A DNA stretch of 18,271 bases from a virus (lineage: Duplodnaviria > Heunggongvirae > Uroviricota > Caudoviricetes), in IMG/VR virus record IMGVR_UViG_2872698443_000001; one strand, given 5' to 3'. The translations under genes were made by a program, and so were the position numbers. Of the stretch, positions 1,115 through 17,989 are shown one piece after another (the first letter of the stretch is position 1; every line of letters starts with the position of its first letter). The notes under the pieces are model-generated. The model ran no database searches. It had not been told where the DNA came from and saw only the letters and a program-made list of their open reading frames with translations.

Positions 1115-1137
1115 CTGTATAAACATTTGTATAAACA
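1115..1137. promoter_or_regulatory. Tandem TGTATAAACA decamers (x2), candidate integrase arm-type binding sites or int promoter element
   Basis: CTGTATAAACATTTGTATAAACA lies just upstream of int; an almost identical 23-bp block in the same orientation occurs at 17886-17908 at the opposite end of the element. Confidence 0.45.
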
Positions 1138-1155
1138 CTTTGGGCTGGGTGGTCT

Positions 1156-2376
1156 ATGGCTGGCGAACTTAACAAACTGAGCGACAGGAAGTTAAAGGGA
1201 TTACATGGTATCCCGGCCAGTAAGATTGAGTTCTATGCTGATGGTGCCGGGCTGAGCGCCAAGGTAACTAAAGCTGGTGGTATTAGCTGGGTGTTTACTT
1301 ACCGACTCGACGGGCAGAAGCTGCATCGTCTTACTCTGGGACGATACCCGGATATGAGCCTCAAAGAGGCCCGTTCTTCGCGTGATAAATGCCGCCAATG
1401 GCTGGCCTCAGGTAAAGATCCAAAGCACCAGTTGGCGCTGACCACTCAGGAAACGCTTAAACCGGTCACTGTTAAGGAAGCTATAGAATACTGGATACGC
1501 GAATATGCAGAAGAGAACCGCGCGAATGTTGAACGGCACAAAGCGGAGCTGCGAAAACACATTTATCCTTATATAGGGAAAATGGCGCTCGCTGACTGTG
1601 AAACACGATACTGGCTTGACTGCTTTGACAGGATGAAAAAGAAAACTCCAGTCGCCGCAGGTTATGTGTTCCAGATGTGCAAACAAGCCCTGAAATTCTG
1701 CCGGGTTCGTCGCTATGCTGTGAGTACCGCGCTTGAAGATTTAACAATTCCAGATGTCGGTAAAAAACAGGCAAAAAAAGACCGGGTATTAAACGATAAA
1801 GAGGCTGGCGATTTATGGGCTGCCATTTCCTCTGGCACTTGCTTCATGCCTTACTACACCAGGCTACTGACAATCTTAATGGTGTTTGGGTGCCGAACGC
1901 AGGAGGCCAGGCTATCAGAGTGGAGTGAATGGGATATGGATGCCTGGGTCTGGACAGTTCCCAAAGAGCACAGCAAGGGCGGCGAGAAGATTGTAAGACC
2001 TGTGCCGGATGCCATGCGCAAATTCATTGAAATACTGCATGATGAAACGAAACGATCCGGCCTTTTGCTTGGGTCGGTTAAAGGCAGTGAAGCGGTAAGT
2101 CAGTGGGGCCGCGGTGTTTATAAAAAGCTGGGGCATTCTGAACCATGGACACTGCACGATCTAAGACGAACTTTAGCAACGCATATGAATAATATGGGTA
2201 TAGCACCACACGTTGTCGAACAGTTGTTGGGGCACTCAATGCCGGGAGTTATGGCGATTTATAACCGTAGTCTGTACTTGCCTGAGAAATTGGATGCGTT
2301 GAATAAATGGTATGACAGACTTGATATTTTATCAGGTGGATTCACTAACATTGTTTTGTTGAATAGGGCTGAATAA
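1156..2376 (+). CDS. Tyrosine-type site-specific integrase (P4-like, 406 aa)
   Basis: Long ORF adjacent to the att repeat; C-terminal catalytic signatures (HDLRRT, GHSMPGVMAIYNRS with the presumptive catalytic Tyr); N-terminal region resembles the arm-binding domain of P4-family integrases. Confidence 0.9.
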   Translation: MAGELNKLSDRKLKGLHGIPASKIEFYADGAGLSAKVTKAGGISWVFTYRLDGQKLHRLTLGRYPDMSLKEARSSRDKCRQWLASGKDPKHQLALTTQETLKPVTVKEAIEYWIREYAEENRANVERHKAELRKHIYPYIGKMALADCETRYWLDCFDRMKKKTPVAAGYVFQMCKQALKFCRVRRYAVSTALEDLTIPDVGKKQAKKDRVLNDKEAGDLWAAISSGTCFMPYYTRLLTILMVFGCRTQEARLSEWSEWDMDAWVWTVPKEHSKGGEKIVRPVPDAMRKFIEILHDETKRSGLLLGSVKGSEAVSQWGRGVYKKLGHSEPWTLHDLRRTLATHMNNMGIAPHVVEQLLGHSMPGVMAIYNRSLYLPEKLDALNKWYDRLDILSGGFTNIVLLNRAE

Positions 2377-2923
2377 TGACTAGTTTTCTAAAATTGGGTA
2401 TTTTCGAGCGAGAAGCCAAAGCCCCGGAACTCAATATTAAACAACTTGCACTACTTATGTGTGGGGTAGATCCGACAGTTAAAACTGCTGATATCCCTGA
2501 GGCGAAAGTTGAAGCTTACAATATATACTATCGACAACTGAGTAGATGGTTATCAGCATCTAAATTATTTCGAGGTGGAAACTCAACAGCCTATCCCGCA
2601 GACTATATGTTTGCTCTGGCATATCCTCTTATTGATGAAGATATTACACCACAACCCATAAAGGACAGATGCCTTGCGGCGGTGGCTATAATTGCTAATC
2701 AAAACAAAGGAAAAGAGCATCTTTATGCTATGGGAGGGGATGAGCTTTTACAGGTCGGAATTGCATTGAAAAGCAGCAAACGCGGCTTGCATCGTAAAGA
2801 AGATGAAAAGGAATATAATGATAAATTAATGGGGATGCTGGTCAAGCTTATAGCACATAAGATAGGCCGGTAATGCTGCCAACTTACTGATTTAGTGTAT
2901 GATGGTGTTTTTGAGGTGCTCCA

Positions 2924-3199
2924 GTGGCTTCTGTTTCTATCAGCTGTCCCTCCTGTTCAGCTACTGACGGGGTGGTGCGTAACGGCAAAAGCACCGCCGG
3001 ACATCAGCGCTATCTCTGCTCTCACTGCCGTAAAACATGGCAACTGCAGTTCACTTACACCGCTTCTCAACCCGGTACGCACCAGAAAATCATTGATATG
3101 GCCATGAATGGCGTTGGATGCCGGGCAACTGCCCGCATTATGGGCGTTGGCCTCAACACGATTTTACGTCACTTAAAAAACTCAGGCCGCAGTCGGTAA
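2924..3199 (+). CDS. insA: IS1 InsA
   Basis: 91-aa [26 protein letters not shown]... recognised as IS1 InsA with its zinc-finger and HTH region. Confidence 0.95.
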
Positions 3200-3621
3200 C
3201 CTCGCGCATACAGCCGGGCAGTGACGTCATCGTCTGCGCGGAAATGGACGAACAGTGGGGCTATGTCGGGGCTAAATCGCGCCAGCGCTGGCTGTTTTAC
3301 GCGTATGACAGGCTCCGGAAGACGGTTGTTGCGCACGTATTCGGTGAACGCACTATGGCGACGCTGGGGCGTCTTATGAGCCTGCTGTCACCCTTTGACG
3401 TGGTGATATGGATGACGGATGGCTGGCCGCTGTATGAATTCCGCCTGAAGGGAAAGCTGCACGTAATCAGCAAGCGATATACGCAGCGAATTGAGCGGCA
3501 TAACCTGAATCTGAGGCAGCACCTGGCACGGCTGGGACGGAAGTCGCTGTCGTTCTCAAAATCGGTGGAGCTGCATGACAAAGTCATCGGGCATTATCTG
3601 AACATAAAACACTATCAATAA
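3118..3621 (+). CDS. insB: IS1 InsB (expressed as InsAB' transposase by -1 frameshift)
   Basis: 167-aa ORF recognised as IS1 InsB; overlaps insA in the -1 frame; frameshift site TTAAAAAAC at about 3173-3181. Confidence 0.9.
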
Positions 3622-3939
3622 GTTGGAGTCATTACCAGATAGGCCATTCGTTTGGCACCTCTAAAAAACCAAGCATCTCGGCTATTTTAAACGAACTATA
3701 TAAATTAGCTGATGAGGAAGGTATATCTAAAACTGGATTATCCAAATCAGCAATATATGATAAAATTCGCAAGGCATTAAATTCGATTTATTATACGGAA
3801 TGAATATTATTTTGCAGTGTTAGTGGGTATTATTTATATTTCATGTGAAAATACTAATTAATTATATTTGTTGGAGCTTTTGGCGATTCTATGATCGCCA
3901 AGGAGATTCAATTGTTATATTTGATGTTTATTACAGTTA

Positions 3940-4020
3940 CATTCAACAGCATTCAACAGCATTCAACGACACGTAATGACACGTAACGGCACCCGACAGC
4001 ACCTAACAATACCTAGCTCC
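3940..4020. repeat. Array of ~10-bp phased direct repeats (CATTCAACAG x3, CACGTAAYGR x2, CACCYRACA-like x2)
   Basis: Read directly: successive near-identical decamers with exact 10-bp spacing in the AT-rich intergenic region upstream of alpA. Confidence 0.6.
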
Positions 4021-4060
4021 ATCCACGGTCTCTACTAGGTCATTACTTGCTAACTTTTTC

Positions 4061-4120
4061 CATCTTTGTTCATGGTTATTCATCACTGTTCATCAGCGTT
4101 CATCATTGTTCATCTTTGTT
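4061..4120. repeat. Six phased CATC-NN-TGTT decamers (iteron-like, TGTTCAT core); candidate crr-like or regulatory protein-binding array
   Basis: CATCTTTGTT CATGGTTATT CATCACTGTT CATCAGCGTT CATCATTGTT CATCTTTGTT at exact 10-bp periodicity; the TGTTCAT core resembles the TGTTCACC iterons at 8571-8799, about 4.5 kb away. Confidence 0.5.
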
Positions 4121-4373
4121 ATGAACAATCCAAGGCGAATCAAATCGTTAGAGAACGGTGATCTTCGGCGAGTTATTGAAATTCATGATTTTTTCTCTCG
4201 CGACAGCCGTTGAAATTACTGTGGAAATTGTTTTCAACAGGGGAGCGTTATCTTGATGGAATTTCTATCTTTCAATGGAATTGCGTGTTCTTTTAAAGGA
4301 TTCCAGAATCAATGGAAATGCTGGTCGTTTATCCACTAATCTCTTCGCATAACATTGAAACAGTGGAGGCAGC

Positions 4374-4658
4374 ATGCAAAATATAACCTTTACCCCGCCA
4401 AATCCTGAACAACGCCGCACCCTTTTAGAAGAGTACGGCTTTAAGTTTGATCGCCGAATCCGTGAAGATGAATGCAGCGAGATCACCAGTCTTTCCCGTT
4501 CCAGCCGCTGGAAGATGGAACAGCAGGGGCGCTTCCCTCCGCGCTGTCACTTTGGCCGCAATAGCTGTGCTTGGCTTCTTTCGGATGTGCTCTGGTGGGT
4601 TCGTAATCCGCCAGCAGTAGAGAACGTCAATAACCCATACAGCCGTAAATCTGCTTAA
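4374..4658 (+). CDS. alpA: AlpA-family phage transcriptional regulator (94 aa)
   Basis: Translation contains the AlpA-type HTH region (ITSLSRSSRWKMEQQGRFPPRCHFGRNSCAWLLSDVLWW); GGAGG Shine-Dalgarno 5 nt upstream of the ATG. Confidence 0.85.
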   Translation: MQNITFTPPNPEQRRTLLEEYGFKFDRRIREDECSEITSLSRSSRWKMEQQGRFPPRCHFGRNSCAWLLSDVLWWVRNPPAVENVNNPYSRKSA

Positions 4659-4678
4659 TTAACCACAGGTAATCTGAG

Positions 4679-5371
4679 ATGAAAAAGATTAATGCCCTCC
4701 ACGGGCAGGGATTCGCTCACCCTGTAGCCAGCCAGCACGATATTTCAGCGAACCGTAAACAGGTTATTGCCGGTGACTGGTCGCCCATTAATCGTGGTGA
4801 ATTTACGCTTGCCGATCTGGGGTTGCGCCACAACGGTAACGGGCTGGTGTGGCTGCGTTCCGGCGTGTCCGTGCATGAGGCAGACCATGATGCAGGGATA
4901 AGCGGCAAGGACAAGACCAAAGGAAGGGTTAACGGCCTTCCTTTTGAATTTGTCGGCCAGTGGCAGGAATACCCGACTAAACGCAGCTTTGCCGTTTCAG
5001 TATCTACGGAACTACGGCGCCAGTATTACCCGGACGATGCCGCATTCAGTAAGGCAATGCGTGAGGCTGGTTATGTTCCGGTGCGCACTCGCAAACTGAC
5101 CGGAAAGGATGCTCGTTTTTGGCTGTACCGTGTAACGGGCAATGATAAGGGGGTTGTCGCAGCAGAATCCGCGCCACACAAGGCTTGCGCGCCAGTTGTC
5201 CAGACCATATCTAAGCCTCATCCGTGGTTTAAGCGTGTGGCACTCGATGGTAAATGGCAGTACGTCTACGCAGATCACATCCGCTTTCTGACTAAAAAGC
5301 GTCATCGCGTCGATGGTGTTCGGGTTCAGGGGTATACCGCTGGCGGGCTGAAAGTGGAGGCTATTGTATGA
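4679..5371 (+). CDS. Hypothetical protein (230 aa)
   Basis: Long ORF co-directional with alpA; its stop overlaps the next ORF start (ATGA). No family recognised. Confidence 0.6.
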   Translation: MKKINALHGQGFAHPVASQHDISANRKQVIAGDWSPINRGEFTLADLGLRHNGNGLVWLRSGVSVHEADHDAGISGKDKTKGRVNGLPFEFVGQWQEYPTKRSFAVSVSTELRRQYYPDDAAFSKAMREAGYVPVRTRKLTGKDARFWLYRVTGNDKGVVAAESAPHKACAPVVQTISKPHPWFKRVALDGKWQYVYADHIRFLTKKRHRVDGVRVQGYTAGGLKVEAIV

Positions 5372-5723
5372 CAGGCAAAACAAAGGCGGCCATGCCGGGC
5401 CGCCTGAGTCTCAACGCTTTACTGAAACATCGCCAGATTACCAGGCTTGCCGCTGGTGGTCAAACCTTGAGCCAACGAAATCCGTACGCACAAATTAACC
5501 GCGTACGTTTAATGTACGGAGATCGAGACAAAGGCGAACAGTATTCGGGTTCATGGCAAAACAACGTTAAACGTGGTTTAGAGGCTCCGACGAAAAACGT
5601 AGAGAGCTGCGAAGATAACCAACCCTCTTTAAGAGGGGAGCCTCTGCACAACTCATTAATAGTTGCGCAAAACAGACCCTTTTTAAGAGGGGCAGTCCAC
5701 AGCATTACGGGGAGTAACCCTGT

Positions 5724-5897
5724 TCAGCCTTTTGGCTCGATGCCGCGCTTATCAAGTTCACGGCGCAAAAGGCGTTTTATCCATCCCGACTTATTATCGT
5801 CACCGTCTTCTTTCATCGCTAAAGCGAGCCGCTCTGACAGTTCTTTATCGAGTCTGAGCTGCACAACATGGCGCTCTTTATTTTCGCTTGTTGACAT
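5724..5897 (-). CDS. Ribbon-helix-helix (CopG/Arc-like) small DNA-binding protein, 58 aa, antisense to the surrounding operon
   Basis: MSTSENKERHVVQLRLDKELSERLALAMKEDGDDNKSGWIKRLLRRELDKRGIEPKG shows a beta-strand then two helices typical of RHH proteins; AGGAG Shine-Dalgarno 6 nt upstream of the ATG (reverse complement of 5895-5908). Start chosen at an internal Met of the 95-aa track ORF. Confidence 0.6.
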   Translation of the reverse strand: MSTSENKERHVVQLRLDKELSERLALAMKEDGDDNKSGWIKRLLRRELDKRGIEPKG

Positions 5898-5940
5898 TGT
5901 CAACTCCTGTGGTCTAGTCTGTAGTGGAGTTGACAATGTA
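5894..5940. promoter_or_regulatory. Perfect 14-bp inverted repeat (ACATTGTCAACTCC / GGAGTTGACAATGT) with 18-bp spacer overlapping the RHH gene start; candidate operator
   Basis: Arms at 5894-5907 and 5926-5939 are exact reverse complements; each arm contains a TTGACA hexamer and an SD-ATG arrangement. Confidence 0.5.
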
Positions 5941-6037
5941 CTACATTGCATGACTTTTAGTAAAGCAAAGCCCGGCAGTGGTGGAACACTAACCGGGCCT
6001 CTAACCACCACCGTTAGCGAAAGTAACGAGGCAGCTA

Positions 6038-6228
6038 TGAAAGATCATATCACACACCCGCAAGGGCGGAAGTCCTACATCTGGCGTTTTCTTGCACTGA
6101 GCGCCATCGGTCGCAACGTCATTCACATCACAGCTAACACTGAGCGCGAAGCCCGTGAGCAATCACCGGCTGGCTGCGTGATGGTATTCGCTGGCCGTCT
6201 ACCAGTTCAGGAGGTTCGCTATGCGTGA
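6038..6228 (+). CDS. Small hypothetical protein (63 aa), possible true 3' portion of the 286-aa track ORF
   Basis: Internal ATG at 6038 preceded by GAGG; its stop overlaps the start of the next ORF (ATG 6221, TGA 6226-6228), consistent with translational coupling. Weak evidence. Confidence 0.3.
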
Positions 6229-6415
6229 GCCAATCTGTCTGGAGCAGGCCGAATATAAATCAGCGCTGGCTTCATCACTTTACGAAACCATCCTGGAAAA
6301 AGCCTCTGCTGAATGTTCAGAAACGCTGCTGAATCTGATTTCTATTGCGTGTGATTTTAATCAGGAAATTCACCGGGCATTAATCGCCGAGCTGCACATG
6401 GGAGAGACAAAGTGA
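6221..6415 (+). CDS. Small hypothetical phage protein (64 aa)
   Basis: ORF in a chain of overlapping small genes immediately upstream of the replication gene. Confidence 0.5.
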   Translation: MREPICLEQAEYKSALASSLYETILEKASAECSETLLNLISIACDFNQEIHRALIAELHMGETK

Positions 6416-6627
6416 GACAGGTTCCTTTTGAAGTCCTGATGCACGCTGAAAATGCCCTTTCAGAAAGTGAGTGCGCAATGTCTGTGCTAAGCATGTGGAT
6501 TGACAGCATTCCCGACGGTGAAGAACACCGTGAGGAAGCGTGCCGTGTCGGAGCAATTATGTCTCTGCTGCACAAATCTATCGGCGAGCTGGTGAAGGCG
6601 CGGGAGGCTTACAGTGCGAAATCCTGA
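6412..6627 (+). CDS. Small hypothetical phage protein (71 aa, GTG start)
   Basis: GTG start preceded by GGAGAG; overlaps the previous stop, indicating translational coupling. Confidence 0.5.
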   Translation: MRQVPFEVLMHAENALSESECAMSVLSMWIDSIPDGEEHREEACRVGAIMSLLHKSIGELVKAREAYSAKS

Positions 6628-6805
6628 AATCAACGATAGCTGGAAGGATAAGCGCGGCGAACTGGTCACGGTGAAAGATAACGCATTTAACCGGGTAACG
6701 TTTGTGCGTGATGGTTACGATTTTCCGTGCATCTTTCCGCTGGAAAGGTTCGTTAAAGAGTTCACTTTCGTTAGCTGGGGGCTGAAAGATGAAAAACGCG
6801 CCTAA
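6614..6805 (+). CDS. Small hypothetical phage protein (63 aa, GTG start)
   Basis: GTG start preceded by GGGAGG; overlaps the start of the replication gene. The pattern resembles small proteins I recall next to P4-family replication genes, but that is from memory and uncertain. Confidence 0.5.
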   Translation: MRNPEINDSWKDKRGELVTVKDNAFNRVTFVRDGYDFPCIFPLERFVKEFTFVSWGLKDEKRA

Positions 6806-8540
6806 TGTGAAAACCCTCCCGCGCGACAAAATGGAGGAGGCCATCATCTTTGCTGGAACGGGAGCATGGAAAGCCGCTCAGGATTACCAGAAAGGGAAGG
6901 GCGAGCATGGAGACGATGTTCCGCCTGTGGTTCTGGATCACACTCAACTGGCGGAATTGCCACACCTGCGCATTGTTGATAAAGGCCGTCGATTTGCCCG
7001 TGTCTGTCAGGCCGGGCTTATCGAGCAAAACCAAATCAGCATGATTGCAAATAAGCTGTGTGAGGCTGGCGTTACCAATGCTGAGTTTATCAACGAAAAA
7101 GGCGAGAAAGAGGACTGGACGCCATTGATGAAACGTCTGGAAGACGAGCCACTTATGGTGACTACGAGGGGAAGTGCTACGCCTGCGCTTAACCAGATGG
7201 GAGCCAGCCAGCGCGGGGAAGTTCTGCTTGCTCATTACGATGGCAATCTGGCGATCCATGCTGATTCCGACACGGTTCATCATTACAACGGCGTGGTGTG
7301 GGTTCCGCTTTCGGATAAAGAGCTGCAGCGAGAAATGGCGCAGATTTTTATTGATTCCGAAGTCGCCTATTCGCAGAACGCGATTAAATCCGCTGTCGAT
7401 ACAATGAAGCTGGGCCTCCCGGTAATGGGTAACACAGCCCGTAACCTGATTGGTTTCAGCAACGGGGTTTTTGATACCCGGTTAGGCCAATTTCGACCGC
7501 ATGATAAAAAGGACTGGCTTATCGTTGCGAGCGAATTGCCATTCAGCGAACCAGCAGAAGGTGAAACTCTGGCAACCCATGCGCCTAACTTCTGGAAATG
7601 GCTCCGCCGCTCTGTGGCGGATAATGACCGAAAAGCAGACCGCGTACTGTCTGCGCTGTTTATGGTGCTGGCGAACCGGTACGACTGGCAGCTGTTTCTT
7701 GAGGTAACGGGGCCGGGCGGAAGTGGTAAAAGTGTTATGGCTGAGATCTGCACGATGCTGGCGGGCAAGGCCAACACCGTATCGGCGAGCATGGCGGCGC
7801 TGGAGAACCCAAGGGAAAGGGCGCTGGTAGTGGGCTATTCGCTGATTATCATGCCGGATATGACCCGGTACGCTGGCGACGGCGCAGGGATTAAAGCTAT
7901 CACTGGCGGGGATAAGGTAGCCATTGACCCTAAACACAAAGCGCCATATTCAACCCGTATACCTGCGGTGGTGCTGGCCGTCAATAACAATGCCATGTCG
8001 TTCAGCGACAGAAGCGGGGGGATTTCCAGACGGCGGGTGATTTTCAACTTCTCCGAAGTGGTACCGGAAAACGAACGCGATCCTATGCTGGCCGAGAAGA
8101 TTGAAGGTGAGCTGGCTGTAATCATTCGCCACCTGCTCACTCGCTTTTCCAGGCAGGACGAAGCCAAACAGCTTTTGCATGAGCAGCAAAAATCAGAAGA
8201 AGCGCTGGCCATTAAACGTGAAGGGGATTCACTGGTGGACTTTTGCGGCTACCTGATGGCTTCGGTGGTTTGTGATGGAATGCTGATTGGTAATGCCGAG
8301 ATCGTGCCATTCAGCCCGCGCCGTTATCTGTATCACGCTTATCTGGCTTACATGCGGGCCAATGGTCTTAGCAAGCCTGTATCGTTAATGCGGTTCGGTA
8401 CGGATATGCCAGGCGCAATGGCTGAATATGGCAAGGAGTACCAGAAGCGCAAAACTAAACATGGCATAAGATCGAACGTCACCCTGCATGATGATTCAGA
8501 AGACTGGATGCCAATGTGTACCGATACAACAAAAGAATAA
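6789..8540 (+). CDS. P4-alpha-like replication protein with SF3 helicase domain (583 aa); no obvious primase domain
   Basis: Walker A GPGGSGKS in a D5/P4-primase-C-terminal-type helicase context; followed immediately by an array of TGTTCACC iterons, the recognition sequence of P4 alpha. Confidence 0.85.
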   Translation: MKNAPNVKTLPRDKMEEAIIFAGTGAWKAAQDYQKGKGEHGDDVPPVVLDHTQLAELPHLRIVDKGRRFARVCQAGLIEQNQISMIANKLCEAGVTNAEFINEKGEKEDWTPLMKRLEDEPLMVTTRGSATPALNQMGASQRGEVLLAHYDGNLAIHADSDTVHHYNGVVWVPLSDKELQREMAQIFIDSEVAYSQNAIKSAVDTMKLGLPVMGNTARNLIGFSNGVFDTRLGQFRPHDKKDWLIVASELPFSEPAEGETLATHAPNFWKWLRRSVADNDRKADRVLSALFMVLANRYDWQLFLEVTGPGGSGKSVMAEICTMLAGKANTVSASMAALENPRERALVVGYSLIIMPDMTRYAGDGAGIKAITGGDKVAIDPKHKAPYSTRIPAVVLAVNNNAMSFSDRSGGISRRRVIFNFSEVVPENERDPMLAEKIEGELAVIIRHLLTRFSRQDEAKQLLHEQQKSEEALAIKREGDSLVDFCGYLMASVVCDGMLIGNAEIVPFSPRRYLYHAYLAYMRANGLSKPVSLMRFGTDMPGAMAEYGKEYQKRKTKHGIRSNVTLHDDSEDWMPMCTDTTKE

Positions 8541-8570
8541 AGGCGGGGAAAATTAAAAGTAATGGGATAA

Positions 8571-8799
8571 GTGTTCACCACTGTTCACCATGTATAAAAA
8601 TCATTAAATAACAATATGTTAATGGGTGAACACTTTTTTATGAAGTGTTCACCAAGTATTCACCAGTTCACCTTTAAAGGGCTTTTCTTTTAAAAGGTGA
8701 AGGGTTAAGGTGAACACTAGTGAATACTTAAAATCATAGTCTTCACCCTGTAACCGAATGAATTTAAATAGGAAAAATGCAAAGGTGAACAGGTGAACA
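8571..8799. repeat. Origin-type iteron array: about 10 copies of TGTTCACC / GGTGAACA in both orientations (P4 ori-like)
   Basis: Copies at about 8572, 8582, 8625 (rc), 8646, 8657 (variant), 8665 (variant), 8709 (rc), 8720 (rc variant), 8784 (rc) and 8791 (rc), in AT-rich DNA just downstream of the helicase gene. Confidence 0.8.
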
Positions 8800-8837
8800 C
8801 TTAAACGCATATTTTTAAATTTTACAGGAGGGGCTGT

Positions 8838-9098
8838 ATGCCAATCACTAACGAGGAACGTAGGGAACACCTGGAAAAGTTTGGTTTAACCAGTCTTGAT
8901 ACAACGCACACTGCCGATTACCGTAAAGCCCTTGAAGAGGAAGCGTTCTTTTGGGATGACCCACACGGTTTTGTGATGCACACGCTTTCCGGAGAGCGAC
9001 TCGTTACGAATACAGAACAGCTGGATGCCTTGCTCGAGCATCTGGAAGGATACCGTGCTTTATTGCCTGACCCTCCGGAATGGATGAGAGAAGATTAA
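8838..9098 (+). CDS. Small acidic hypothetical protein (86 aa)
   Basis: ATG preceded by AGGAGGGG; the protein has many more Asp/Glu than Lys/Arg residues. No family recognised. Confidence 0.55.
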   Translation: MPITNEERREHLEKFGLTSLDTTHTADYRKALEEEAFFWDDPHGFVMHTLSGERLVTNTEQLDALLEHLEGYRALLPDPPEWMRED

Positions 9099-9104
9099 TC
9101 AAGT

Positions 9105-9125
9105 GGCCTCATCACAGATGAGGCC
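9105..9125. terminator. Hairpin between convergent genes (8-bp stem GGCCTCAT / ATGAGGCC, loop CACAG); possible bidirectional terminator
   Basis: Perfect inverted repeat between the stop of 8838-9098 (+) and the stop of 9137-9658 (-); flanking T-tracts are weak. Confidence 0.4.
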
Positions 9126-9136
9126 TAATATGAGAT

Positions 9137-9658
9137 TTAACGATGTAATTCATTAATTTTGTCGCTGACGTTTTTTTTCCTTAACTCATTCAAGAAAAAA
9201 TAATTAACAAGTATCACCCTAAATATCGCTGCGAATTGCGCGATAGCCAAGAAAGCTACAAATGTAAAATTAAGGTATTTAACATAAGGGATATAGTTAA
9301 CATCAACCAGGCCTTTAAGTAAAGGGGCGAAGAATTGTATAAGAAGAACAGCCATTAATACAACAGCTGATACCATGACGATCTCAACTAATTCGCTTAA
9401 ATAATTAGCATCTTTATGTGATTCCTTCCCCTCGGCTTTATTTGATTGAGGTGAGTCCCTCTTATTTAATATTCTCGCCATCGCCCTTGGATAAATAATT
9501 GCTATCCAGGCGCCTATAATGGCAAATATTATAGATGAAATATTAAGCAGGGCACCTAGCGTGTCCTTGTAATCATTATAGCCAAGCGTTGTTATTCGGC
9601 CTCTAAATATAATGGCCATCAAGGCTGCTATAAGCACATAAATTATATATTTTATCAT
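9137..9658 (-). CDS. Small integral membrane protein with four predicted transmembrane helices (173 aa); second gene of cargo operon
   Basis: Four hydrophobic stretches (about residues 4-18, 34-56, 88-113, 129-153) separated by charged loops; its start is 1 nt after the upstream gene's stop (TGA-C-ATG on the minus strand); visibly AT-rich. Confidence 0.75.
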   Translation of the reverse strand: MIKYIIYVLIAALMAIIFRGRITTLGYNDYKDTLGALLNISSIIFAIIGAWIAIIYPRAMARILNKRDSPQSNKAEGKESHKDANYLSELVEIVMVSAVVLMAVLLIQFFAPLLKGLVDVNYIPYVKYLNFTFVAFLAIAQFAAIFRVILVNYFFLNELRKKNVSDKINELHR

Positions 9659-9659
9659 G

Positions 9660-10694
9660 TCACCCCCCTGCTGGTGGTGTCTTCATTTTGTTTAACAACT
9701 CTGCTCTGCGTTTTATTATAGCAGATAACAGTCTTTCTGGAGCTATTATGTGGTTATCTTTTCGCCGAACATTTAGCTCGGTTTCAAAAGCAACATTTGC
9801 ACCGCTAAGCCAGATAGATTTCCCGTCACTATATTTGAAGCCAACATTCCTTATAGGTGAGCTATTACCTAACTCATTATAGTTTTTAATAATTAATTTT
9901 AGCTGTGATTCTGTTGGTTTGAATTCCATCTCGTGAAAGATCGTTCTTTCCTGTGTGTTTGCTGGTGTGTTTTTTAACAGGCCAGAAAAAACTCTTTCAA
10001 TTATTTTTCTATCATCTGGGGCTAAATAAGTTATTTTTTCTCTTTTTAATATCTTTGTGATTCTGTGAATGTTATTAATTAACTCTGCCTGAACCTCATC
10101 ATATTTCATTCCTACAGCATAAAATTTAGGGTTTAATTTTTCTGAATCAGAGTTTTTCTTAGCATCAGCGGAAAAGCCAATTACTTTATCATCATTATCG
10201 AGCACGCGATATGGGGATTTGTTTGCAAGATATCCATTGAGATAGTTATCAAGATTACCCTTTCCCATTAGAGAGTGTTCAAATTTGATTGAAGCAAAAG
10301 CATTTTCATCAGGAATGAACCAAAAGTAACAAGGAAATCCTGGAATAGCCTTATCGACATCAAATCCAGTGGTTAACATATCCACTTTACCGGGTTTAGC
10401 TAGCGGTGGCATACCATATATCACCCCACTATCATTGGGAACCTCTGCCCAAAGAGTTAAAAGGTGGTCTCCGTACTGCCTGTCTGACGCCAAACCACAA
10501 AAATAGGTATTGCGGATGTCCTCTTCCTTTTCGGCTTGGTAGGTAAGAGTATTGATGAACTCTCTTCCATCAGAAGCCCAACCTTTCAGTTTAAGCAATG
10601 TATCAGTGGTGTTGCCTAAGTCTGGTTTTTTAGAGCCGTGCTTGTAATATCCGCATCTATTGATATCAAAAAACTTCAGTTTTGCAGTTAGCAT
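9660..10694 (-). CDS. Hypothetical soluble protein (344 aa); first gene of cargo operon, candidate sensor or effector of a defence system
   Basis: Long ORF with a good RBS (AAAGGAAAATAA-ATG); visibly AT-rich compared with the flanking capsid and replication genes; no nucleotidyltransferase, ATPase or other motif recognised by eye. Confidence 0.75.
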   Translation of the reverse strand: MLTAKLKFFDINRCGYYKHGSKKPDLGNTTDTLLKLKGWASDGREFINTLTYQAEKEEDIRNTYFCGLASDRQYGDHLLTLWAEVPNDSGVIYGMPPLAKPGKVDMLTTGFDVDKAIPGFPCYFWFIPDENAFASIKFEHSLMGKGNLDNYLNGYLANKSPYRVLDNDDKVIGFSADAKKNSDSEKLNPKFYAVGMKYDEVQAELINNIHRITKILKREKITYLAPDDRKIIERVFSGLLKNTPANTQERTIFHEMEFKPTESQLKLIIKNYNELGNSSPIRNVGFKYSDGKSIWLSGANVAFETELNVRRKDNHIIAPERLLSAIIKRRAELLNKMKTPPAGG

Positions 10695-10708
10695 TTATTT
10701 TCCTTTTT

Positions 10709-10736
10709 ATTATCACTACCGAGAGGCTGTGGTTAA
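10709..10736 (-). promoter_or_regulatory. Candidate sigma70 promoter for the cargo operon (extended -10 GTGATAAT, -35 TTAACC, 16-nt spacer)
   Basis: Reverse complement of 10709-10716 is GTGATAAT and of 10731-10736 is TTAACC; positioned just upstream of the 344-aa gene. Motif-level only. Confidence 0.3.
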
Positions 10737-10845
10737 ATAATCTAACAAAAAAATTCTTTTGTAAATTATTTGTTCTCATGTTTATTCGTGATTGCCTCTG
10801 TCTATGTACGGGGTTTTCTTTATATTTTTCATGTATATCTTTAAG

Positions 10846-10933
10846 AGTGGCACTCAGACGTGAGCCGCCACTGGCCGTTAAGTCAAGCTGTAGCGAGTAC
10901 AGCCTGCGAGAGGCAGAAAAAGATTTAACGGCC
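10846..10933. other. GC-rich nested inverted-repeat element in an otherwise AT-rich divergent intergenic region
   Basis: Outer 9-bp stem GGCCGTTAA (10873-10881) / TTAACGGCC (10925-10933) enclosing hairpins GCTGTA-GCGAG-TACAGC and CTGC-GAGAG-GCAG; a further GTGGC/GCCAC stem at 10846-10870. Confidence 0.35.
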
Positions 10934-10988
10934 TCCCCTCCAAGCGCTGGTTTCACGTCTCAACGTTAATTGTTACGGAAACCACTCC

Positions 10989-17885: not shown

Positions 17886-17908
17886 CTGTATAAACATCTG
17901 TATAAACA
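17886..17908. promoter_or_regulatory. Second tandem TGTATAAACA pair, candidate arm-type integrase binding sites on the opposite arm
   Basis: CTGTATAAACATCTGTATAAACA matches 1115-1137 at 22/23 positions in the same orientation, 4 bp from the right att repeat. Confidence 0.45.
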
Positions 17909-17911
17909 ATA

Positions 17912-17989
17912 ATAAAAAAGGCGCATCCCCATGCCGAGTAGCGCCTTTTTATTCAATAACATAGCTGAAATGTATCAGTTCATGCCGTA
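17912..17989. repeat. Right copy of ~78-bp imperfect direct repeat; includes the fis terminator and the last five fis codons
   Basis: See 908-985; this copy is contiguous with the intact fis gene (stop at 17975-17977). Confidence 0.8.

Follow-up and report, generated by a model that had tools for sequence, protein, structure and literature searches.

What is the gene that lies between the integrase and the activator gene alpA in a phage satellite of Escherichia coli, and what becomes of a satellite in which an insertion sequence has split it? The question is raised by the IMG/VR virus record IMGVR_UViG_2872698443_000001 (Caudoviricetes), a stretch of 18,271 nucleotides that is referred to below as the window. 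The window holds a phage-inducible chromosomal island of the capsid-forming kind (cf-PICI), of the type of EcCIGN02175 and KpCIDSM30104, and this island lies in E. coli between yhdJ and fis. The open reading frame (ORF) that follows the integrase gene int, here named ORF216, has received an IS1 in codon 165, with the usual 9-bp duplication. We read this locus as the IS1-truncated form of a cf-PICI gene that probably encodes a regulator of the alpA region, and give this reading as a whole a probability of about one half. The features that define the interrupted gene are as follows.

2376-2868, plus strand: 5' part of ORF216, codons 1-164 and the first base of codon 165
2860-2868: left copy of the 9-bp target-site duplication, AGATAGGCC
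2869-3636, plus strand: IS1, 768 bp, with its genes in the same direction as ORF216
2924-3199, within IS1: insA, with the A6C frameshift site (AAAAAAC) at 3175 and insB' ending at 3621
3637-3645: right copy of the 9-bp target-site duplication, AGATAGGCC
3646-3803, plus strand: orphaned 3' part of ORF216, codons 165-216 and the stop codon, coding for a conserved C-terminal module

The inserted element has all the characters of the IS1 family: a length of 768 bp, imperfect inverted repeats of about 23 bp (GGTAATGCTGCCAACTTACTGAT and GGTAATGACTCCAACTTATTGAT, identical at 19 of 23 positions), a -1 frameshift at A6C and a 9-bp duplication. Its called genes match the Pfam domains Zn_ribbon_InsA, HTH_Tnp_IS1 and DDE_Tnp_IS1, and the same element in strain TUM9754 is labelled in RefSeq as 'IS1-like element IS1A family transposase, programmed frameshift'. 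Scripted joining of 2376-2868 to 3646-3803 gives an in-frame sequence of 651 nt that codes for 216 aa. The truncated gene consists of 164 native codons, a hybrid codon CGG (Arg), to which the duplication contributes one base and IS1 two, and the IS1-derived stop codon TAA at 2871-2873; its product has 165 aa in total. The initial annotation, made from the sequence of the window, had described the IS1 with its inverted repeats, the perfect duplication, the IS1-supplied stop codon and the rebuilt protein down to its C-terminal residues, and all of these were recovered. The insertion itself is an ordinary event and is already annotated publicly: in TUM9754, the Prokaryotic Genome Annotation Pipeline (PGAP)/RefSeq annotation gives the 5' piece of ORF216 as a pseudogene 'missing C-terminus' beside IS1. 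Its mechanism is no different from that of classical E. coli IS1 inactivation followed by adjacent deletion; only the target, a conserved cf-PICI gene, is unusual.

The rebuilt gene also occurs uninterrupted, with an agreement that far exceeds chance. A megablast search with its 651 nt against 5,426 complete E. coli genomes matched seven of them. The gene is intact in four, with complete identity (651/651 nt, 100%) in CU37RT-2, GN06667 and GN05476 and 99.8% identity in OW1E2; TUM9754 and DETEC-P61 carry the IS1-split gene found in the window, and S163-2 has just the first 493 nt of the rebuilt ORF. The empty IS1 site is identical in GN06667, GN05476 and CU37RT-2, and the intact ORF216 of GN06667 corresponds to WP_004149995.1, a hypothetical protein of 216 aa. 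After removal of IS1 and one duplication copy, the window aligns with GN06667 without gaps over 17,494 nt, with 34 mismatches, 22 of which fall in the host gene yhdJ and none between 1558 and 4795. A single base distinguishes the window from TUM9754. These two comparisons, of the rebuilt protein with uninterrupted homologues and of isolates with and without the IS1, had been proposed as checks in the initial annotation, and both agree with its reconstruction.

It could be argued that the native protein is the one of 165 aa and that 3646-3803 is unrelated non-coding sequence, or that the IS1 is an artefact of assembly; we found nothing in favour of either and consider both to be practically excluded. 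The 22 full-length representatives of ORF216 clusters are 214-220 aa long and conserved past residue 165, where S176, I178, K184, S192, G195, T200, K204 and I205 are invariant or nearly so, and the rebuilt ORF is identical to natural alleles. The native product is the longer one of 216 aa, as first proposed. As to assembly, the same junction recurs in three complete genomes that are independent of one another, as well as in many draft or metagenome contigs.

The IS1 allele is present in 3 of the 5,426 complete E. coli genomes. The 165-aa form was found on nine contigs in one count and on 19 in a fuller look-up; all 19 are at the yhdJ site, and the draft contigs break about 86 nt into IS1. Contigs that carry the intact 216-aa protein number at least 1000 (Klebsiella, Salmonella, Citrobacter and E. 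coli), and it is also present in Klebsiella pneumoniae ATCC 13883 (= DSM30104), in Enterobacter hormaechei and in the packaged DNA LR881103.1. The insertion thus happened once, recently, in one circulating E. coli lineage. The recent age, suspected from the outset, also agrees with the perfect duplication and the absence of any divergence from the intact allele.

In the sister strain S163-2, this IS1 afterwards caused the loss of the 7,339 bp next to it. The left IS1 junction of this strain (locus L003, NZ_CP058709.1, 9001-10275) is identical to that of the window, and its right IS1 end is joined to window position 10976, which is 13 bp upstream of the capsid gene, with flanks 100% identical to the window. 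The IS1-adjacent deletion corresponds to window 3637-10975. Lost with it were the right-hand copy of the duplication, the 3' end of ORF216, alpA, the genes for the Icd-like protein and the primase, and a candidate defence pair (PDC-M18, see below), so that the capsid operon is now directly downstream of IS1.

What IS1 removes from the protein is its conserved C-terminal 52 residues. A model was computed with AlphaFold2 and 22 homologues for database protein P0001, which is identical to the rebuilt sequence (mean predicted local distance difference test, pLDDT, 82.8). It predicts a confident helical N-terminal domain (about residues 17-107), one long helix (112-163) and two C-terminal helices (175-189 and 198-213). 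The cut, at residue 164/165, falls between the predicted long helix and the C-terminal module. This module includes in the window a helix-turn-helix (HTH)-like motif, GLSKSAIYDKI, for which the family consensus is G-[LIM]-S-[KR]-[SA]-T-x-[YD]-K-K-I, and some remote proteins share just the C-terminal 70 aa or so of ORF216. The short motif is all that ORF216 has in common with the AlpA/Vis/excisionase HTH proteins (PF05930); it is three times longer, has an unrelated N-terminal domain and the long helix, and scores below threshold.

By the searches made here, ORF216 fits no known family. It matches phrog_30524, whose function is unknown. The family comprises 23 clusters among 5.8 billion proteins and 47 representative clusters among 1.84 billion, with lengths of 214-220 aa and, in distant members, 205-241 aa. 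Fold searches returned no structural relative and no match to an HTH fold, and a sequence profile search of the PDB gave Brinker at E=1.1, which is at chance level. Two other identities were considered and rejected. The segment AHKIGHSFG recalls the metzincin/matrixin metallopeptidase signature HExxHxxGxxH, but it has neither the Glu nor the third His; the metzincin-like Pfam and NCBIfam hits are weak (E 0.03-0.17), and most homologues have other residues in place of the two His. A defence gene was likewise rejected, as PADLOC gave no match for ORF216 or for three genes that take its place in related islands.

The place that the gene occupies is more informative. It is bounded by the following two genes.

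1156-2376, plus strand: int, tyrosine integrase of 406 aa (Pfam Arm-DNA-bind_3 and Phage_integrase; WP_004149996.1)
4374-4658, plus strand: alpA, 94 aa (Pfam Phage_AlpA, PF05930, E=5e-10)

AlpA is the master activator of PICIs (PMC6092414). The int stop and the ORF216 start overlap by 1 nt (TAATG). The order int, ORF216, a non-coding gap of 0.3-0.7 kb and alpA is found in all complete loci examined except L031 and in at least 10 genera; loci with this order come from Yersinia, Proteus, Providencia, Rahnella, Brenneria, Xenorhabdus, Pectobacterium, Serratia, Enterobacter and Klebsiella, and from a second E. coli site. It is kept where Int is only 25-26% identical (Xenorhabdus, Serratia) and where ORF216 is only 28% identical (L030, in the region of K. 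pneumoniae pVA126-339). The exceptions are L031, from Salmonella, in which two genes are inserted before alpA, and L015 (Serratia sp. L9, 10001-10366), a truncated remnant without alpA. In L015 the ORF216 homologue is cut after about residue 122 by unrelated DNA, and this locus is an independent remnant of the family. A megablast search with the E. coli paralogue (P0015 locus) against the complete E. coli genomes gave no match.

Related E. coli islands, found by way of alpA, fill this slot with a single other gene, of 262, 274, 309, 313 or 346 aa. These alternative genes (loci L020, L021, L022, L027, L028 and L029) are related to one another, carry an N-terminal motif like RAAxLLGCExxDL and are each accompanied by their own palindrome or repeats upstream of alpA. 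No Pfam or PADLOC match was found for the three that were checked. A hidden Markov model (HMM) search of ORF216 against the alternative proteins returned nothing, and an hhalign comparison of ORF216 with them was not significant. EcCIMP1_002, which a published PICI has between int and alpA, was also considered as a counterpart of ORF216, but it codes for a different and much smaller protein.

The contents of the int-alpA slot thus vary, yet, the two-gene insertion of L031 apart, it always holds exactly one gene, and in this it is unlike a cargo hotspot. We infer that ORF216 is not free cargo but the sole occupant of a fixed slot. The opposing explanation is that ORF216 is accessory cargo, with an anti-phage, host-modifying or competition function and no part in the island cycle, and that IS1 removed a dispensable or costly passenger. 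This we judge unlikely, although several observations agree with it: the slot varies between close islands, L020 having a different gene; no regulatory domain was detected at threshold; the null allele is tolerated; and accessory genes can sit between int and stl in the Staphylococcus aureus pathogenicity islands (SaPIs; PMC6092414). Against these stand the constant occupancy of the slot by one gene, with none or several not observed; the negative PADLOC results for ORF216 and three alternatives; the conservation of the neighbours down to 28% identity; and the exchange of the gene as a unit that includes the alpA promoter region and repeats. Moreover, according to 10.1101/2025.02.11.637232, the immune-system regions of this cf-PICI type are expected on both sides of the packaging module, and it is in the variable region before that module that the PDC-M18 pair of the window is located.

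The initial annotation had called ORF216 a cargo gene in a position where satellites often carry accessory or regulatory genes. The position stands, and the second of the two possibilities fits better: the gene lies outside both expected immune regions, has no PADLOC match and occupies a fixed one-gene slot, so that 'cargo' is probably better replaced by 'fixed-slot, probably regulatory gene'. In P4-type satellites a defence hotspot reportedly lies next to int. The present slot resembles it in being int-proximal and in differing in gene content between relatives; it differs in that there is exactly one gene, that those scanned have no defence match and that the unit exchanged includes the alpA promoter region.

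The exchange of this unit is seen most clearly in the 570 bp of non-coding DNA between ORF216 and alpA, which contain two arrays of 10-bp phased direct repeats and a group of TGGAA(T/A) sites.

3940-4010: first repeat array, with three copies of CATTCAACAG, two of CACGTAAYGR and two of CACCYRACAR (Tandem Repeats Finder, TRF)
4061-4120: second repeat array, about six TTCATCNNTG units (TRF period 10, 6 copies)
4220-4318: TGGAA(T/A) cluster, with sites at 4220-4228, 4253-4262, 4273-4281 and 4310-4318 and an inverted ATTCCAGA at 4300-4307

There are three copies of CATTCAACAG in the window, four in K. pneumoniae (L008) and six in E. hormaechei (L016). The array sequences differ between loci. A lag-10 autocorrelation peak is present in 11 of 13 ORF216-associated gaps, the two in which it is weak or missing being L017 and L023. 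The TGGAAT sites, four or five in number, are found about 56-155 bp upstream of the alpA ATG. This site architecture is kept in Yersinia, Rahnella, Brenneria, Xenorhabdus, Pectobacterium, Serratia, Providencia and a distant Klebsiella island, and in Proteus all the sites have shifted together to CTAGAAA. Between the last TGGAA site and the alpA start, TTATCCACT at 4329-4337 matches the DnaA box at eight of nine positions. An ATCCAYTA core is kept at this position in related loci; for TTATCCACT, a DnaA site and the -35 region of the alpA promoter are both conceivable.

Two loci are informative on the association of these elements. L020, from E. coli FDAARGOS_1283, occupies the same yhdJ-fis site, and its Int, AlpA and primase are 98, 97 and 99% identical to those of the window. 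There, window 2320-4350, comprising ORF216, the arrays and the site cluster, is replaced by the 309-aa gene and 138 bp; the TGGAA cluster is absent and a perfect 11-bp inverted repeat, GCATACTGATA-N13-TATCAGTATGC, is found instead. L030, conversely, combines an AlpA whose subtype is unrelated (no BLASTP hit) with an ORF216 homologue, the arrays and the TGGAA sites. From these two contrasts, the cis elements follow ORF216 and not the AlpA subtype or the primase. An origin for the primase was considered for the arrays, as TGTTCATC resembles the iterons of P4; it is disfavoured, since L020 has a primase 99% identical to that of the window and no arrays.

The arrays could instead suggest a partition or maintenance protein that polymerizes on them and stabilizes the excised, replicating island, in the manner of pSK1 Par, a single-protein partition system with upstream repeats. 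Two phased arrays adjoin the gene in most loci, and the predicted helical domain, long coiled-coil-like helix and small helical module would suit such a protein. Against it, the array sequences vary from locus to locus while the putative recognition helix is conserved, related islands without ORF216 have no such arrays, and PICIs are not known to need partition. We regard this explanation as very improbable.

A function in recombination was also considered. ORF216 could be an integrase partner, that is, a recombination directionality factor (RDF) or architectural factor translationally coupled to int and acting in excision or integration. The gene is always directly 3' of the integrase gene, and its overlap with the stop codon of the latter is 1 nt in the window and 4 nt (ATGA) in homologues; the swapped cassette starts within the last 19 codons of int; and the C-terminal motif is AlpA/excisionase-like. 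However, the Xenorhabdus and Serratia integrases followed by ORF216 are only 25-26% identical, and therefore there is no co-evolution with one Int; in L011, from Xenorhabdus, a 20-nt gap replaces the overlap. In L020, the partner gene is a different one beside an Int that is 98% identical. The accompanying repeats are about 3 kb from the att core and not in the att arms, and ORF216, with its 216 aa and three modules, is unlike known RDFs. In addition, expression of AlpA alone induced excision and replication in cells carrying EcCICFT073 (PMC6092414). On balance, a partnership with Int is improbable.

We return to the regulator. With odds slightly under even, and on the evidence of comparative sequence analysis, ORF216 may be a DNA-binding regulator that acts on the non-coding region accompanying it and thereby controls the alpA promoter. 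The protein would bind the 570-bp region and tune transcription of alpA, and the AlpA activator would in turn induce the island during the growth of a helper phage. In that case the IS1 allele would be a loss-of-function allele of the putative regulator; the island that carries it would be less inducible or uninducible, and free to decay as in S163-2. The initial annotation had suggested that inactivation may alter regulation or remove a cost; the one fact that bears on this is that the null allele persists and that, in S163-2, it was followed by further decay.

Several observations weigh against this proposal. ORF216 has no match at threshold in Pfam, NCBIfam or PADLOC, and none to a DNA-binding family. 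The Phage_AlpA hit of Pfam to residues 189-207 is weak (E=0.07; 13.4 bits, the cut-off being 21), and the hhalign comparison with AlpA, although aligned at the turn and recognition helix of the latter, has a probability of 0.8%. In the AlphaFold2 model, the loop between the last two helices has eight residues and is longer than in a classical HTH. A relation between the sequence of the sites and the Y/D variant of the C-terminal helix is suggestive, but it comes from few independent lineages and is confounded by phylogeny. That the TGGAAT sites are AlpA sites is disfavoured by the contrast between L020 and L030; L020 nonetheless retains a single ATGGAAAT core, inverted and about as far from alpA, and some of the sites may therefore serve AlpA autoactivation. 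The co-occurrence of a gene and cis elements in sequence comparisons is no proof of binding: the TGGAAT sites could be targets of a factor from the host or the helper phage, or the sites and ORF216 could simply be inherited together. Finally, the direction of the regulation is a guess. We favour a positive, sensor/co-activator or modulatory role over that of a sole repressor, because the sites are upstream of the likely core promoter and because the null allele survives in a circulating lineage, although uncontrolled expression of AlpA is harmful in EcCICFT073 (PMC6092414).

The obvious comparison is with Stl/Rpr of the PICIs of Gram-positive bacteria and the SaPIs, where a diversified gene with its own operator-like repeats likewise lies between int and the 'lytic' regulator. 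Unlike Stl/Rpr, ORF216 is co-directional with int and alpA and not divergent, its sites are upstream of the probable core promoter, where the operators of Stl/Rpr overlap the promoter, and its null allele is tolerated; there is no similarity in sequence or fold. Stl/Rpr repress the island genes until a helper-phage protein relieves them. It is possible, though doubtful, that the int-alpA slot of Gram-negative PICIs and cf-PICIs, whether filled by ORF216 or by the 262-346-aa genes ('family B'), encodes the specificity regulator of these islands and is the counterpart of Stl/Rpr. The slot protein would in that case bind cassette-specific sites upstream of alpA and, as a repressor, a sensor or a co-activator, couple alpA transcription to a particular helper phage.

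The remainder of the island agrees with its assignment. It is delimited by a direct repeat, which is the longest exact repeat common to the yhdJ-int and DUF3892-fis gaps.

922-947: attL, 26-bp direct repeat TCCCCATGCCGAGTAGCGCCTTTTTA
17926-17951: attR, 26-bp direct repeat TCCCCATGCCGAGTAGCGCCTTTTTA

The island measures 17,004 bp with IS1 and 16,227 bp without it (777 bp extra). It codes for Int, ORF216, AlpA, an Icd-like protein, a D5-type primase/helicase, a low-GC pair of genes in reverse orientation, a packaging module (HK97-type capsid, protease, portal, head closure and connector proteins, HNH, TerS and TerL) and a DUF3892 protein. The characters of a cf-PICI are all present, namely int, alpA, pri-rep and its own capsid and packaging genes, and genes for tail and lysis are absent. 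Int, ORF216 and AlpA are 100% identical to those of K. pneumoniae ATCC 13883 (L008), and primase, capsid, protease and portal are 95-98% identical to those of KpCIDSM30104. From int through TerL, the gene order is the same as in the cf-PICIs EcCIGN02175 and KpCIDSM30104 (10.1101/2025.02.11.637232) and EcCIEDL933 (10.1101/2022.09.08.507074). KpCIDSM30104 has neither the PDC-M18 pair nor an IS1 in ORF216; the island of the window has both.

According to 10.1101/2025.02.11.637232, KpCIDSM30104 has been studied experimentally and is very similar to EcCIGN02175, and induction by a helper phage and transfer in the island's own small capsids with borrowed tails were shown for both. In a keyword search of 10.1101/2025.02.11.637232 and 10.1101/2022.09.08.507074, no role was given for the int-proximal gene. 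A packaged relative with an intact ORF216 is LR881103.1, of 16,548 bp, deposited in GenBank as a 'phage' from an induced lysate. This entry (L019, 'Escherichia phage vB_KppS-Ant') is a packaged cf-PICI of the same family. At 2036-4333, in the variable region after terL and where the window has DUF3892, it carries a coding sequence of 765 aa annotated as 'tail length tape measure protein', a doubtful annotation.

Three further observations concern the other genes and the ends of the island. The PDC-M18 pair is encoded on the minus strand at window 9137-10694 by genes of 173 and 344 aa with a GC content of about 0.37 and no Pfam domains; PADLOC matches the former to PDC-M18B (E=8e-23) and the latter to PDC-M18A (E=2e-71). 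The match of the 286-aa ORF at window 5368-6228 to the Icd-like family (NCBIfam NF033153, E=4e-16) is confined to its final 44 residues, and gene models for this region disagree, RefSeq giving a 63-aa Icd-like gene and a small reverse gene, and LR881103.1 a 324-aa protein. Close direct repeats of CTGTATAAACA occur inside both island ends, at window 1115-1138 (exact at 1115, followed by a near-copy) and 17886-17908 (exact at 17886 and 17898); they may be candidate arm-type sites of the integrase.

The two alleles of the lineage record steps in the decay of a satellite within its host lineage: the insertion came first, and the IS1-adjacent loss of the regulatory and replication module followed. 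A by-product of the comparison is more useful than the IS1 itself, namely that an exchange of the gene in the int-alpA slot includes the promoter region of alpA with its repeats. How alpA is silenced in Gram-negative PICIs and activated by helper phages is an acknowledged open question (PMC6092414). If the slot encodes a regulator, the IS1 allele of the window would be a natural knock-out of it. Near-isogenic islands exist with the gene intact (GN06667) and disrupted (TUM9754 and DETEC-P61), and therefore the regulator hypothesis is directly testable with existing strains and helper phages.

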